Assembly (NCBI RefSeq): GCF_000021825.1
Contig: NC_011729.1
Span: forward strand, 4,506,969 to 4,538,968
From: Gloeothece citriformis PCC 7424
Lineage (GTDB): Bacteria; Cyanobacteriota; Cyanobacteriia; Cyanobacteriales; Microcystaceae
DNA length: 32,000 nt
Reading direction: 5' to 3'
The position numbers were made by a program, and so were the translations under genes. Shown here one piece after another: positions 3,641-19,798 of this stretch. Positions within the stretch are counted from its first letter, which is position 1. Every line of letters begins with the position of its first letter. Below the pieces are notes generated by a model, which was given only the letters and a program-made list of their open reading frames with translations, ran no database searches and was not told the origin of the DNA.

Positions 3641-4534
3641 ATGCTTCGATACGCTTATTTTCCCGGCTGTGTAGCCCAAGGTGCTTGTCGAGAGCTTTAT
3701 CTATCGACGGCGGCTCTCACTCAAGCGCTCGGAATTGAGTTGGTGGAACTGAAAAAAGCTGCTTGCTGTGGATCGGGAACTTATAAAGAAGATTCTCAGT
3801 TACTCGAAGATACGGTTAATGCTCGTAATATCGCTTTAGCTGAATCCCTTAATCTCCCTTTACTGACTCATTGCAGCACTTGTCAAGGGGTCATTGGTCA
3901 TGTGGATGAACGATTAAAAGAAGCCAAAGAAGAAGACCCGGTTTATTTTGAAAAGGTCAATGATTTTTTAAAAAAAGAAAGTTGCTCTCCTTATCAAGGC
4001 TCTACAGAAGTGACTCATTTATTATGGGCAATAGTCGCTGATTTTGGCTTAGAAGCTTTGGCTCAAAAAGTGACTCGTAAGTTGAGCGGTTTAAACTGTG
4101 CTGCTTTTTATGGCTGTTATCTATTAAGAGGACAAAAGTTTTTACCCTACGATAATGTTTTCCAACCGGAATCAATGGAGAATGTGTTTCGCACGGTTGG
4201 GGCTAATCCTATCTATTATTCTGGACGGACTCAATGTTGTGGGTGGCCGCTTTCGAGTTATTCTACCCCTGAATCGTTCAAAATGGCCGGTAAACACATT
4301 CAAGAAGCCCTTGAAGCCGGTGCAGATTGTTTAGTGACCCCCTGTCCTCTATGTCATTTAAATCTCGATTCCCGTCAACCTGAAGTGGCTAAGGTAGTCG
4401 GAAAGGATTTAGGATTACCTGTGTTACACTTACCTCAATTGGTGGCGTTGGCGGTGGGAGTTTCCCCGAAAGAATTAGGATTAGATCGTCATGTCGTTTC
4501 TACTAAGCCGGTTTTAGAAAAGTTGGGATTATGA
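3641..4534 (+). CDS. HdrB/SdhE-like protein with two CCG cysteine-rich domains (heterodisulfide reductase subunit B family; possibly a succinate dehydrogenase-type subunit)
   Basis: Two CCG motifs (AACCGSGT and TQCCGWP) plus CxxC-type cysteines (FPGC, HCSTCQG, PCPLCHL), as in the HdrB/GlpC/SdhE family. Confidence 0.75.
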
Positions 4535-15467: not shown

Positions 15468-15977
15468 GTGAGCTATGTAACAGAACCTCTAAATCATTCC
15501 GTTGTGGTATTCTCTAGAAATTATCTCCCCATCAGTCGGGTTAATATTCGACGAGCAGTTATTCTTCTGGTTACTGGAAAAGCTGAACCGATCGATGTAT
15601 TATCGGAGGCAATTTGGGAAATCCGTTCTCCTAATTTAGTGGTGCAAGTTCCCCCCCAGATTCGCTTAACCCTTAATAGTGGCGATCGACTCTGGAAAAC
15701 TCCCCCAGTCAACCGACGGGAAGTTCTGCGACGGGATAAACATCAGTGTCAATACTGTGGGAGCAAACATAAGCTCACCCTAGATCATATTCTTCCTCGC
15801 TCAAAAGGCGGAAAACACACTTGGGATAATGTAGTTATTGCTTGCGAAAGTTGTAACTCTCGTAAAGGCGATCGCACTCCTTCTGAAGCAGGGATGATCT
15901 TAAAAACTAGCCCCAAAGCTCCCATTCACCCGACTATTCTGTTTGCTGAACAGTTTTGGCAACAACAGCAGTTGTAA
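15468..15977 (+). CDS. HNH endonuclease family protein
   Basis: The HNH core reads HQCQYCGS...LTLDHILPRSKGGKHTWDNVVIACESCNSRKGDR. It has a GTG start and the N-terminal domain typical of this small-HNH family (YLPISRVNIRRAVILLVTGKAE). Confidence 0.88.
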   Translation: MSYVTEPLNHSVVVFSRNYLPISRVNIRRAVILLVTGKAEPIDVLSEAIWEIRSPNLVVQVPPQIRLTLNSGDRLWKTPPVNRREVLRRDKHQCQYCGSKHKLTLDHILPRSKGGKHTWDNVVIACESCNSRKGDRTPSEAGMILKTSPKAPIHPTILFAEQFWQQQQL

Positions 15978-16561: not shown

Positions 16562-16634
<73 letters not shown>

Positions 16635-16756: not shown

Positions 16757-17191
16757 ATGGAACTTATTAGTAGCGCAGTAATAAGCCTTGCTTCTGCTTT
16801 TTTAAAAAAAGTTTGGGAAAAAACAGAGGACAAGGCAGCAGATACATTGTTAGAGAAAACTAACAAGTTTTTAGCCTCTCTTAGACAACAATCTCCCGAT
16901 ACAGTCACCGCTATTGAAAAAGCACCTACACAACCCCTTGATTATGGCACGGCTATATTAGAAATTGAATCGGCGGCTAAGTCTAATCCAGATGTAGCTG
17001 AATCTATGGCACAATTGGCAGAAACCGCTAAAGCTGAATCTATTCCTCAATTACAGCAAAAGATAGATGAGATTTTAGAGAAATTGAAGACTGAGAAACA
17101 CTCCCCAACGGTTATTAATCAGCAAAAGTTGGCAGATGAGATTAAAAATAATTTCCAAGGTAACACATTTAATAATACTACCTTTCAATGA
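16757..17191 (+). CDS. 144-aa helical protein. It corresponds to the N-terminal (effector-like) module of the downstream STAND NTPase and ends at an in-frame TGA.
   Basis: It is in the same reading frame as 17267-19798, with no other stop between them. It has a hydrophobic/amphipathic N-terminus (MELISSAVISLASAFL), a helical body and an N/Q/G/T/F-rich tail (NNFQGNTFNNTTFQ). Confidence 0.6.
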   Translation: MELISSAVISLASAFLKKVWEKTEDKAADTLLEKTNKFLASLRQQSPDTVTAIEKAPTQPLDYGTAILEIESAAKSNPDVAESMAQLAETAKAESIPQLQQKIDEILEKLKTEKHSPTVINQQKLADEIKNNFQGNTFNNTTFQ

Positions 17192-17266
17192 CTCCAGTCG
17201 CCCGGACGGGAACGGGCAAAGTTAACTCCCCCTAAATCTATACCTTATCGCGGTTCTGTCCATTTT

Positions 17267-19798
17267 GTGGGACGAGAAAAGGAACTGCACTTGCTGCATG
17301 AAGATTTAGGGAGAGGAGATTTTGTTGCGGTGACGGGAATGGGGGGAGTGGGTAAAACTGAGTTGGTGACTCAGTATGTTAAGCGGTATGGGGAAGCTTA
17401 CGGGGGGATAACTTGGTTTAATGATAGGGAAAGGGGTTTGGCGGCAGAAGTTTTCAAGTTTTTTGTTTTACAGTTAAATTATGAGATTCCCCAAGAGTTA
17501 GGGGGACAACGGTTAAGTCTTAAACAACAATTAGAGTGGTGTTGGAGTAATTATCCGGCTTGTGAGTTGCCTATTTTACTGGTTTTTGATGATGTTACTC
17601 ATTTAGATAATTTTCGGGAGGTTGTTCCTAGTGATAACCGTTTTCGAGTTTTGGTGACGACTCGACTACAATATCTAGACCCTAATTTTATTAGTGAGGT
17701 GGGTTTAGATGTTCTTTCCCCAGAAAATGAACCGGGTAAGGCGTTAGAACTGTTAGAAAGTTTGTTAGGAACGAAAGATAAGCGCGTCCAAAGAAAACCC
17801 CAAGCGGCAGCAAATATATGTCAATGTTTGGAGTTTTTGCCGTTGGGGATAATTTTAGTCGGGGGGTATTTGGTTAATGAGCCGGATTTGTCTTTAGAGA
17901 GAATGTTACAGCGCTTGCAGGAGAAAAAGTTAGCAGAGGAAGCGCTACAGCAACGGGAAAGTCTTAATAAATATGAAAGGGGAGTTAGGGCGGCTTTTGC
18001 GTTAACTTGGGAAGAACTTAATCCTTTGTCTCAACAAGTAGGAATGTTCCTCAGTTTATTCTCTCCTAAGTTGATTCATTGGGATTTGGTGGTAGGGGTT
18101 GTGTGTGACCTCTCCCCTGACCCCTCTCCTACTATGAGAGGGGAGAATATTGACCTCTCCCCCAACCCCTCTCCTACTATGAGAGGGGAGAATATTGATA
18201 TTGTTCCCCCTTCCCTTGTAGGGAAGGGGGTTAGGGGGTTAGGTCTTAATTGGTCGGAGGAGAAGTTAAACGAGGGGAAAAAGCAACTCTATAAACGAAA
18301 TTTGCTGCAACGGGAAGAAGAGAGAGAGGGATGTTATAAAATTCATGCTTTAGTAAGGTGGTTTTTACAGGAAAGGTTAGAGGAGTCAGGGGAGATAAAG
18401 GGAGTTTTAAAACAAACTTTCGCCACCGCGATGATAACTAAGGCTAAAATTATTCCTAAGCAACCCAGTGTTACAGATATTGAAAATGTTAAAGATTTTA
18501 TTCCCCATATAGAAGCATTGGCAGAGAGTTTAATTGAAGAAGCAAAGGACAAAAGACAGGGAAAGATCATTACCTCAGCATTCTTGTCTGATGAGGATAT
18601 TATCCGGCCTTTTGTGGGGGTAGGATGGTTTTATCAAGGGCAGGGGTTATATTTTTTAGCAGAACCTTGGTTAAAGCAATATGTAGATGTGCTTAAAAGT
18701 TACTTTGGAGAAGAACATCCCGATGTAGCAACCAGTTTGAACAATTTAGCCGTACTCTACCATTACCAAGGGCGCTACACTGAAGCCGAACCCCTGTACC
18801 TCCAAGCGTTGGAGATGAGAAAGCAACTGTTAGGGCAATCTCATCCTGATGTGGCAACCAGTTTGAACAATTTAGCCATTCTCTACTATTCAATGGGGCG
18901 CTACGAAAAAGCCGAACCCCTATACCTCGAAGCTTTGGAGATGTATAAGCAACTGTTGGGGCAATCTCATCCTGATGTGGCAACCAGTTTGAACAATTTA
19001 GCCATTCTCTACTATTCAATGGGGCGCTACGAAAAAGCCGAACCCCTATACCTCGAAGCTTTGGAGATGTATAAGCAACTGTTGGGGCAATCTCATCCTG
19101 ATGTGGCAACCAGTTTGAACAATTTAGCCATTCTCTACTATTCAATGGGGCGCTACGAAAAAGCCGAACCCCTATACCTCGAAGCTTTGGAGATGTATAA
19201 GCAACTGTTGGGGCAATCTCATCCTGATGTGGCAACCAGTTTGAACAATTTAGCCATTCTCTACTATTCAATGAGGCGCTACAAAAAAGCTGAACCCCTA
19301 TACCTCGAAGCTTGGGAGATGTATAAGCAACTGTTGGGGCAATCTCATCCTCTTGTCGCAACGAGCTTGAACAATTTAGCCCTTCTCTACTCTTCAATGG
19401 GGCACTACGACAAAGCTGAACCTCTGTTGCTCGAAGCTTTGGAGATGAGTAAGCAACTGTTGGGGCAATCTCATCCTGATGTGGCAACCAGTTTGAACAA
19501 TTTAGCCCTTCTCTACTCTTCAATGGGGCGCTACGAAAAAGCCGAACCTCTCTACCTCGAAGCTTTGGAGATATGTGAACGAGTCTTAGGGAATAATCAT
19601 CCTAATACGGTGGCAATTAGAGAAAATCTTGACCTTATGCAACAGGAACGTACTTCCCTTGACATCTGGAGTCATCGCTTGGGTTACGTTGTTGGAATTT
19701 TGTTAGGAATAGTGATATTACCTGTTGTAATCTTGTTAGTACCCTTTTATGTCCTGTGGTTGCTCTTTAAGCGCTTGTTTACTTTCCTGTTCCGTTAA
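17267..19798 (+). CDS. NLR-like STAND NTPase: NB-ARC domain, about 7.5 KLC-type TPR repeats and a C-terminal hydrophobic (TM) segment. The open frame actually begins at 17192.
   Basis: Walker A VAVTGMGGVGKTELV, Walker B LLVFDDV, RVLVTTR and a GLPLA-like LPLGIILVG. The track's GTG start lies inside the conserved FVGREKEL pre-P-loop motif. The 42-aa TPR units read HPDVATSLNNLAxLYxSMGRYEKAEPLYLEALEM. The C-terminus is LGYVVGILLGIVILPVVILLVPFYVLWLLF. Confidence 0.85.
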   Translation: MGREKELHLLHEDLGRGDFVAVTGMGGVGKTELVTQYVKRYGEAYGGITWFNDRERGLAAEVFKFFVLQLNYEIPQELGGQRLSLKQQLEWCWSNYPACELPILLVFDDVTHLDNFREVVPSDNRFRVLVTTRLQYLDPNFISEVGLDVLSPENEPGKALELLESLLGTKDKRVQRKPQAAANICQCLEFLPLGIILVGGYLVNEPDLSLERMLQRLQEKKLAEEALQQRESLNKYERGVRAAFALTWEELNPLSQQVGMFLSLFSPKLIHWDLVVGVVCDLSPDPSPTMRGENIDLSPNPSPTMRGENIDIVPPSLVGKGVRGLGLNWSEEKLNEGKKQLYKRNLLQREEEREGCYKIHALVRWFLQERLEESGEIKGVLKQTFATAMITKAKIIPKQPSVTDIENVKDFIPHIEALAESLIEEAKDKRQGKIITSAFLSDEDIIRPFVGVGWFYQGQGLYFLAEPWLKQYVDVLKSYFGEEHPDVATSLNNLAVLYHYQGRYTEAEPLYLQALEMRKQLLGQSHPDVATSLNNLAILYYSMGRYEKAEPLYLEALEMYKQLLGQSHPDVATSLNNLAILYYSMGRYEKAEPLYLEALEMYKQLLGQSHPDVATSLNNLAILYYSMGRYEKAEPLYLEALEMYKQLLGQSHPDVATSLNNLAILYYSMRRYKKAEPLYLEAWEMYKQLLGQSHPLVATSLNNLALLYSSMGHYDKAEPLLLEALEMSKQLLGQSHPDVATSLNNLALLYSSMGRYEKAEPLYLEALEICERVLGNNHPNTVAIRENLDLMQQERTSLDIWSHRLGYVVGILLGIVILPVVILLVPFYVLWLLFKRLFTFLFR
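18107..18245 (+). repeat. In-frame insertion of hairpin-forming short dispersed repeats inside the STAND gene
   Basis: Two 45-bp direct repeats (18107-18151 and 18152-18196) each carry the hairpin cccctctc-ctactat-gagagggg. They are followed by a perfect hairpin, cccccttccc-ttgta-gggaaggggg (18206-18230). Together they translate as DLSPDPSPTMRGENIDLSPNPSPTMRGENIDIVPPSLVGKGVRGLG. Confidence 0.85.
18710..19640 (+). repeat. 126-bp tandem repeat array (coding; TPR units)
   Basis: The motif caatctcatcctgatgtgg recurs exactly at 18836, 18962, 19088, 19214 and 19466, with a variant (caatctcatcctcttgtcg) at 19340. Units 18836-18961, 18962-19087 and 19088-19213 are identical base for base by my comparison. 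The flanking units are diverged. Confidence 0.9.

Follow-up and report, generated by a model that had tools for sequence, protein, structure and literature searches.

The window analysed here, a stretch of 32,000 nucleotides from the genome of Gloeothece citriformis PCC 7424 (NC_011729.1), contains on its plus strand two coding regions that share one reading frame and are separated by a single TGA stop codon. According to the open reading frame (ORF) listing and its translation, the upstream ORF, ORF1, extends from an ATG at 16757 to the TGA at 17189-17191, and its coding region (16757-17188) specifies a protein of 144 amino acids, referred to below as the N-module. Directly downstream and on the same strand lies the reading frame of a NOD-like receptor (NLR), which is annotated from a GTG at 17267 to 19798. 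Pfam detects in it an NB-ARC domain (E = 1e-12) and seven TPR_12 units, and the protein ends in a hydrophobic tail. The nucleotide after ORF1's stop codon is a C (17192), and the 75 nt from 17192 to 17266, read in the frame of ORF1, yield the stop-free sequence LQSPGRERAKLTPPKSIPYRGSVHF. None of these 25 codons is ATG, GTG or TTG, so that the GTG at 17267, encoding the valine of the motif FVGREKEL, is the earliest candidate for a start after the TGA. It is located 22 codons upstream of the P-loop GMGGVGKT (17336-17359), and a further in-frame TTG is present at codon 34 (17291). The shared frame, the TGA-C tetranucleotide and the lack of a start before GTG 17267 had been described in an initial annotation of the sequence, and all of these statements were confirmed. 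Between ORF1 and the NLR ORF, neither a terminator-like nor a plus-strand promoter-like site was detected, in agreement with a single transcription unit. There is also no uninterrupted frame spanning effector and NTPase, unlike in an all-in-one effector-NLR fusion. TGA is a normal but rare stop codon in the window, being used by three of the 21 long ORFs, and ORF1 is the only one of them that ends with TGA-C. The chance of obtaining one in-frame open gap of 25 codons was estimated to be about 0.1 (one third for the frame times about 0.3 for being open). A single gap of this kind is unremarkable, and the significance of the arrangement therefore rests on the comparison with other loci.

For ORF1, neither Pfam nor NCBIfam gave a significant match. 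Its 27 closest database homologues are all stand-alone cyanobacterial proteins of 109-149 amino acids, and an exhaustive profile search defined a family of 335 representative clusters, nearly all of which are 120-160 amino acids long. The AlphaFold2 model of ORF1 is all-helical with a hydrophobic N-terminal helix and a predicted local distance difference test score (pLDDT) of 71, dropping to 40-45 over the C-terminal motif. When the model was compared with the PDB by Foldseek, nothing below E = 0.7 was found, the coiled-coil domain of potato Rx ranking third without being significant, and a profile search of PDB sequences revealed weak matches only, mostly to designed helical proteins. The Q/N/G-rich end of ORF1, NQQKLADEIKNNFQGNTFNNTTFQ (17117-17188), aligns column for column with KLADKIGQVVMPGGTGNIQNQSF of its relatives, a string that Dyrka et al. 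give in their Table S2 as BASS5 (10.1101/2020.01.06.895854), and it also aligns with the BASS5 string KLADKIGQVVMPGGTGNIQNQ. It is a short G/N/Q-rich stretch of about 25 residues at the end of the effector and a putative amyloid signalling motif. ORF1 is homologous (E down to 1e-25) to proteins whose C-terminal string constitutes Bell-side BASS5 entries, and members of the family whose ORF ends with TAA or TAG carry the motif string given by Dyrka et al. as Bell-side BASS5. Because the motif pair of these TAA/TAG-type relatives is the published BASS5 pair, ORF1 was placed in the Bell/BASS family, and as judged from its sequence it probably belongs to the Bell-domain/BASS5 effectors of amyloid signalling. 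In the system described by Dyrka et al., a motif on the NLR side templates the motif on the effector side, and membrane damage is ascribed to the helical domain (10.1101/2020.01.06.895854). The related Bab/Agp system of E. coli defends against phage (10.1101/2024.11.07.622273).

The orthologous locus of G. verrucosa (L001) is organized in the same way. Its N-module ORF ends with TGA-C and is followed in frame by LQSPFRERVKLTPSKSKLYSGSVHFVGREKEL. The linkers of the two loci are identical in 19 of 25 positions (76%) without an insertion or deletion, and are thus better conserved than the N-modules (64%). The NLR bodies are 69% identical, and this similarity starts at the first codon after the stop. 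That codon differs synonymously between the two loci (CTC versus CTA), and the GTG at 17267 in the window corresponds to GTA. The initial annotation had left room for a fresh nonsense mutation or a sequencing error. Both are refuted by the retention of TGA-C and of a 76% identical in-frame linker in the orthologue, by the recurrence of the arrangement across dozens of cyanobacterial genera, and by a Gloeothece citriformis PCC 7424 database protein that is 100% identical to ORF1. A lone in-frame stop codon within an apparent single protein would be expected of a pseudogene as well, and some relatives (L018, L072) are visibly decaying. However, the orthologue and about 80 independent loci and assemblies share this stop codon, purifying selection acts on either side of it, and the exact 144-amino-acid protein is on record from a finished genome. 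That the window holds a pseudogene, a recent mutation or an assembly error is hardly credible on these grounds.

To compare the junction across the family, 80 loci were taken from cyanobacterial genomes by means of an N-module profile, and every N-module ORF was placed by a hidden Markov model. The outcome depended on the stop codon. Among the N-module copies ending with TGA, 44 of 47 stay in frame, either for 116-1230 codons or to the end of the contig, whereas none of the 33 copies ending with TAA or TAG does so, the longest continuation being 45 codons (Fisher p = 2.2e-19). The orthologue comparison suggested by the initial annotation showed that the stop is kept in G. verrucosa. The three exceptions are L025, which has TGA-T and is of the classical two-gene type, and L018 and L072, which possess an extra stop nearby. 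In 46 distinct contexts of the TGA and the conserved sequence behind it, called the cassette in the following, TGA is invariant and never replaced by TAA or TAG. It is followed by the conserved peptide L[QEK][SP][SP]xxER[AT]K despite differing downstream bodies, which comprise NB-ARC/TPR proteins, NACHT proteins with HEAT and NCC-H, proteins with TPR only, CHASE2 proteins and a PsbP-like membrane protein. The CHASE2 sensor domain protein (L059, 2097-3395) and the PsbP-like protein with a predicted membrane segment (L009, 4439-5098) are examples of bodies that are not NTPases.

A sense codon in place of the TGA was not found at any cassette-bearing junction in the homologue and exhaustive profile searches, which fits selection for two products. 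Two candidates for uninterrupted fusions, L061 and the second N-module-like ORF of L004 (ending at 3828), were rejected since they look like deletion derivatives. A few long members of the family in the database are direct fusions of Bell-like modules to other bodies and have no cassette. P0083, P0140 and P0145, for example, join a Bell-like module to a dynamin-like GTPase in about 820-900 amino acids and contain neither a BASS-like tail nor the LQSP linker. Neither the deletion derivatives nor the long fusions reveal a residue replacing the stop codon. Further stops occur in some copies. L072, L006 and L011 break off 40-138 codons past the TGA, and the Brasilonema copy L018, on a contig shared with L102, reads TGA CTG TAG at 4421-4429 with the hairpin described below intact. 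The second in-frame stop of L018, two codons past the first, may indicate a decaying copy or a double stop.

Conservation after the stop codon is higher at the nucleotide level than coding alone demands. Of the 46 contexts, 38 have C at position +4, 40 have U at +5 and 43 have a purine (G or A) at +6. Codons of the cassette such as TCG, CGG and AAG hardly vary in their third position, although the genome has a GC content of 40%. In bacteria, a C after UGA is documented to make the termination signal weak (PMC5289835), as had been pointed out for E. coli in the initial annotation, and UGA-C is also used at the prfB shift site, including that of Synechocystis. In the window, the TGA is followed by a spacer of 8 nt, CUCCAGUC (17192-17199), which has the C at +4 and the CUR NAG UC context conserved over the 46 contexts, and then by an RNA hairpin (17200-17217). 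In this structure GCCCG (17200-17204) pairs with CGGGC (17213-17217), enclosing the loop GACGGGAA (17205-17212). Across 44 distinct sequences, the 5-bp stem beginning 8 nt past the stop is paired in 97.7% of the cells of the alignment. One of its pairs is CG in 21 sequences, UA in 21 and UG in two, with no mismatch at all, and another is GC in 36, CG in three, UG in two and GU in one. None of 500 shuffled controls matched the observed values, pairing dropped to 12-42% when the partners were slid against each other, and RNAalifold recovered the same helix independently. The compensatory changes are non-synonymous (SP...A versus SS...T), so that it is the RNA that is constrained here and not the peptide. 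In addition, UCCC at 17227-17230 could pair with GGGA in the loop (17208-17211). These four pairs are paired in 77-95%, are mostly conserved without covarying, and show a compensatory change in one lineage only (AGGA/UCCU in Microcystis), so that a pseudoknot is possible but weakly indicated. A mini-hairpin enclosing the stop codon itself (GAC..GUC) is present in the minimum-free-energy fold and was rejected, as its columns do not covary.

A UGA codon closely followed by a conserved hairpin is the layout of bacterial selenoprotein genes, and an invariant TGA would be expected if selenocysteine were inserted with the hairpin serving as a bacterial selenocysteine insertion sequence (SECIS). However, the SECIS of the E. 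coli fdhF type is larger than, and unlike, a 5-bp stem with a GGGAA loop. No Rfam family, SECIS included, matched the junction. The UGA is placed in a linker between domains and not in a redox centre, and no homologue with cysteine at this position was found in the homologue and exhaustive profile searches. Moreover, a survey did not detect the selenocysteine-decoding trait in Cyanobacteria (PMC1794560). Selenocysteine is thus a very improbable solution for this UGA.

The members of the family with TAA or TAG show what the junction looks like when the NLR is encoded by a separate gene. Their NLRs begin with a methionine of their own, followed by a second copy of the C-terminal motif of the effector (for example MPEDSGKFADKIGAFAAPGAQVNIGTQII) and by the LTPTKSIPYRGSVHFVGRE linker. 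The effector ends with ...KLADKIGQVVMPGGTGNIQNQSF, and the NLR starts with M(P/S)EDSGKFADKIGAFAAPGAQVNIGTQIIEGQKQ-LTPTKSIPYRGSVHFVGRE; exactly this motif pair is given by Dyrka et al. as BASS5, with entries for the Bell side and the NLR side in their Table S2 (10.1101/2020.01.06.895854). In these relatives the LTPTKSIPYRGSVHFVGRE peptide is situated well inside the NLR ORF, and the view of the initial annotation that initiation at GTG 17267 would produce a truncated NTPase holds. In UGA-type NLRs this linker is likewise present and its distance from the NTPase is unchanged, but a motif copy and a start of their own are both missing. In the window, the 24-residue linker alone lies between the stop codon and FVGRE, there is no motif copy, and the locus is hence not a canonical pair. 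One motif type, AKLQEKG..., occurs in both architectures, in the two-gene form in L045 and in UGA forms in L065 and L066. Motif copy and UGA cassette therefore show a complementary distribution. Readthrough of the UGA, if the sequences are interpreted correctly, would supply the NLR with both a motif and a start.

The region behind the stop codon is under coding constraint in frame 0. After the hairpin, the ratio of non-synonymous to synonymous changes (pN/pS) is 0.16-0.5 for the majority of divergent pairs; the values were calculated ungapped, and rows for the N-module tail were ignored where indels misalign the pairs (about 30% identity). Together with the orthologue, these values show that the 25 start-less codons of the linker (17192-17266) are conserved as protein, although they would be intergenic if the locus consisted of two genes. 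A conserved start codon, on the other hand, is missing. The position of the first in-frame ATG, GTG or TTG past the TGA varies among the loci. Over the 50 codons preceding the P-loop, four Microcystis loci are devoid of such a codon, and in L009, L010 and L056 the first one appears at codons 78-115, past essential N-terminal segments. These data bear on the possibility that two ordinary genes are present, ORF1 terminating at its stop codon and the NLR being translated from its own start, be it GTG 17267, TTG 17291 or a non-canonical codon. In that case, an ancestral fusion would have left the shared frame as a relic, and the conserved element would be an intercistronic RNA signal acting in processing, stability or coupling. 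Public gene calls do list ORF1 and the NLR separately, the window does offer the in-frame GTG (codon 26) and TTG (codon 34), the hairpin could have another role, and a free form of the effector is certainly real, since hundreds of stand-alone proteins of about 140 amino acids exist. On the other side stand the missing conserved start, with GTA in G. verrucosa, none before the P-loop in the Microcystis loci, and a first start far inside the body elsewhere. In a relic, the stop codon would be free to drift, and indels and additional stops could accumulate, but TGA is invariant, the frame is open in 44 of 47 copies, and the linker is better conserved than ORF1. The resulting NLR would also be devoid of the signalling motif found in its canonical relatives. 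Two separately initiated genes are accordingly judged unlikely.

A conserved element directly 3' of a stop codon might also act by termination and reinitiation, the hairpin holding the ribosome until it restarts at the adjoining codon without a canonical start, so that the NLR begins with LQSP.... Such a mechanism would account both for the strictly kept frame and for the lack of an upstream start, and in three loci (L019, L074, L076) a GTG does follow the TGA directly. In general, however, the adjoining codon is mostly CUG or CUA and otherwise CUC, CUU, CCA, CCG, CAG, AUA, GAA or GUG, and most of these are not known to be used as starts in bacteria. There is no conserved Shine-Dalgarno-like element, and the NLR would again be without the effector motif that its canonical relatives need. 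Reinitiation is improbable for these reasons. An ATG overlapping the TGA at 17188-17190 was noticed by eye and opens a short out-of-frame ORF. This ATGA overlap was considered as a coupling start and rejected, because the ORF is short and out of frame and the overlap is lost in G. verrucosa.

The explanation that is regarded as probable is programmed readthrough of the UGA, by which the locus would deliver abundant free effector and a rare effector-NLR fusion of 1013 amino acids. Leaky readthrough yielding a free 144-amino-acid module and a rare fusion was among the options of the initial annotation, and it is favoured by the exclusive use of TGA, the lack of a conserved start, the frame-0 coding constraint and the covarying hairpin. 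The locus would then be one translational unit with partial readthrough at 17189-17191, the proposed recoding site. The majority of ribosomes would end at the UGA and release the 144-amino-acid effector, consisting of the Bell-type helical domain and the C-terminal BASS5-like motif. A minority would decode the UGA, most likely by near-cognate tRNA-Trp, and proceed through the 25 linker codons into the NB-ARC/TPR body. The predicted product (16757-19798; 144 + 1 + 868 = 1013 amino acids) would contain the junction NNFQGNTFNNTTFQ-X-LQSPGR and, in this order, the Bell-like module, the motif, X, the linker, NB-ARC and TPR. Three features would set the ratio of the two products, namely UGA-C(UR) as a weak context, the spacer of 8 nt and, at 17200-17217, the covarying hairpin. 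Readthrough would stand in for the additional copy of the motif that canonical Bell/BASS-NLR pairs have at the NLR N-terminus, and the sensor would bear the signalling motif of the effector or the whole effector. By analogy with published systems, the activated and oligomerised sensor would nucleate the pool of free effector, resulting in membrane damage and cell death. We infer the occurrence of readthrough as well as its efficiency, the inserted residue, amyloid templating and an output in death or defence.

Several points weigh against this interpretation. The hairpin is short, with 5 bp, and although the helix is part of the minimum-free-energy fold, its predicted stability in the window is no better than that of shuffled sequences (z = 0.02). 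The covariation counts are derived from related sequences, and the number of independent events is consequently overstated. The assignment of ORF1 to the Bell family is based on common family membership with proteins of the published list and not on a direct domain match. The extra stops in L018, L072, L006 and L011 suggest that some members are decaying, and in principle the copy in the window could be inactive, too. The readthrough product itself is predicted from comparison. Finally, stimulation of readthrough by RNA structure is established for eukaryotic and viral ribosomes, and we know of no example in a bacterial cellular gene.

In viruses, comparable arrangements are well known. The coat protein gene of phage Q-beta is extended to A1 through a leaky UGA, alphaviruses use UGA-C with a 3' stem-loop, and in murine leukaemia virus the gag-pol UAG is followed by a pseudoknot after a spacer of 8 nt. 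The cyanobacterial loci resemble these cases in that one mRNA is proposed to give an abundant short and a rare extended product, in the conserved identity of the stop codon, in the weak UGA-C(U) context, and in the structure starting 8 nt downstream. They differ in being cellular genes of bacteria, with a hairpin of 5 bp and a weakly supported pseudoknot, and in having a portable element that is shared by different effectors and sensors. A second parallel is provided by the release factor 2 (RF2) gene prfB, whose CUU UGA C site shares the weak, RF2-recognised UGA-C, in cyanobacteria as well, and here too the outcome could depend on RF2. In prfB, however, a +1 frameshift is stimulated by an upstream Shine-Dalgarno-like sequence, while the frame is maintained and the conserved element is located downstream in the present loci. 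With all-in-one NLRs the predicted readthrough product has the order of effector, NB-ARC and TPR in common, but here a conserved stop codon interrupts the ORF. The true fusions within the family are built with other bodies (dynamin-like GTPase, HEAT repeats), and neither the motif nor the LQSP linker is present in them.

Closely similar systems are the Bell/BASS-NLR pairs of Dyrka et al. They share with the locus a helical effector of about 140 amino acids, its short Q/N/G-rich C-terminal motif, and its position immediately upstream of a co-linear NB-ARC/TPR protein. Unlike in these pairs, the NLR of the locus lacks both a motif copy at its N-terminus and its own start, and the parts are joined by a UGA and an RNA hairpin. 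Fungal HET-S/NWD2 is the paradigm of such amyloid signalling, and the antiphage Bab/Agp system of E. coli a tested example (10.1101/2024.11.07.622273). The locus is absent from the pair-based screen of Dyrka et al., in which PCC 7424 is represented by the pair ACK70198/ACK70197; the other motif types of UGA loci are not in the table of that study, and the preprint contains no mention of stop codons or readthrough (10.1101/2020.01.06.895854). In full-text literature searches, neither readthrough at Bell/NLR junctions nor any programmed readthrough in a cyanobacterium was found to be described. As far as can be judged from sequence, the locus would represent Bell/BASS-NLR signalling expressed by way of programmed readthrough, each of which is known in kind.

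To examine the distribution of the cassette further, a covariance model was built from the signal. It detected 66 sites in the 0.8 Mb of DNA that had been fetched, all of them at TGA junctions, and there was no match in loci of the TAA/TAG type. Three of the 66 sites were new copies, in each of which an N-module ORF is followed by the TGA and by an NLR in the same frame. When metagenomes were scanned with a pattern, 30 more loci were revealed. In all of them an ORF ends at the TGA and the conserved peptide follows in frame, although a few break off after 1-63 codons. In nine of the 30, the upstream ORF is divergent or different. One of the alternative ORFs specifies an alpha/beta-hydrolase of 301 amino acids with weak, sub-threshold matches of the PGAP1/DUF676 type, and others belong to a second helical family of about 140-150 amino acids with Q/N/G-rich tails and no Pfam match. 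The same cassette behind other upstream ORFs was seen in L101 (1610-1642), L086, L088, L090, L094, L098 and L103. Closely related bodies can also be found behind different N-module tails (L014/L031 and L019/L083). The specificity of the signal and the mixing of effectors and bodies indicate that the element behaves as a junction cassette. On three contigs, two effector-NLR units with a cassette are present a few kb apart (L085 at 4001 and 9645, L091 at 6327 and 10405, L111 at 5183 and 8110), so that the systems cluster.

From these observations a more far-reaching scheme can be drawn, which is speculative and, as a whole, unlikely to be correct. In it, a portable UGA-hairpin recoding cassette links many death effectors to many sensors, and the rate of readthrough is itself part of sensing. 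The effectors seen comprise Bell-like helical modules, the second helical family with Q/N-rich tails and the alpha/beta-hydrolase, and the sensors NB-ARC/TPR, NACHT/HEAT, CHASE2 and membrane proteins. Weakened RF2-dependent termination may lead to more effector-sensor fusion and may tip the system toward firing. Phage-encoded suppressor tRNAs, phages that recode stop codons and translation stress may be considered as triggers.

Some further features of the window were noted. A tRNA-Arg(TCT) gene is located at 16562-16634, 122 nt upstream of ORF1, and may mark the boundary of an island. Synteny with G. verrucosa does not extend to this left flank, where that species has a DnaJ gene. This tRNA-Arg(UCU) was considered as a suppressor of the UGA, and its proximity was dismissed as a coincidence, since it is non-syntenic in the orthologue and a poor near-cognate for UGA. 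Farther upstream, a 169-codon ORF (15468-15977) contains an HNH-nuclease-like motif, CQYCG...LDHILP...WDN...CESCNSRK, recognised by eye. Within the NLR gene, a 45-bp tandem repeat (18106-18198; 2.1 copies, 95% identical) is translated in the NLR frame as DLSP(D/N)PSPTMRGENI twice, followed by VPPSLVGKGVRGLG. At its place the G. verrucosa orthologue has unrelated sequence, and the repeat looks like a hypervariable insert between the NB-ARC and TPR regions. A 126-bp TPR unit is present in 6.8 copies with 92% identity at 18716-19572, which suggests recent amplification of the repeats; an antisense ORF for 276 amino acids (18693-19523) has probably arisen as a by-product of the repeat. The hydrophobic tail at the end of the NLR (19660-19795; ...GYVVGILLGIVILPVVILLVPFYVLWLLFKRLFTFLFR) is kept in G. 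verrucosa, which suggests a membrane anchor on the sensor.

Loci of this kind are currently annotated as a hypothetical small protein and an N-terminally truncated NTPase, and screens for amyloid signalling based on motif pairs are blind to the UGA type. Readthrough, if it takes place, would explain a class of cyanobacterial NLRs that seem to have neither a start codon nor a signalling motif. Sensor and effector would be coupled by translation of one frame at a fixed ratio, whereas canonical systems fuse the two or duplicate an amyloid motif. To our knowledge, family-wide, structure-associated readthrough of stop codons is barely documented in cellular genes of bacteria, although it is textbook knowledge for viruses and eukaryotes. 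The loci described here would then be a clear case of stop codon recoding in such genes. As the cassette is short and portable, it is directly accessible to reporter assays and, should the proposal be true, it may help to set protein ratios in cyanobacteria.

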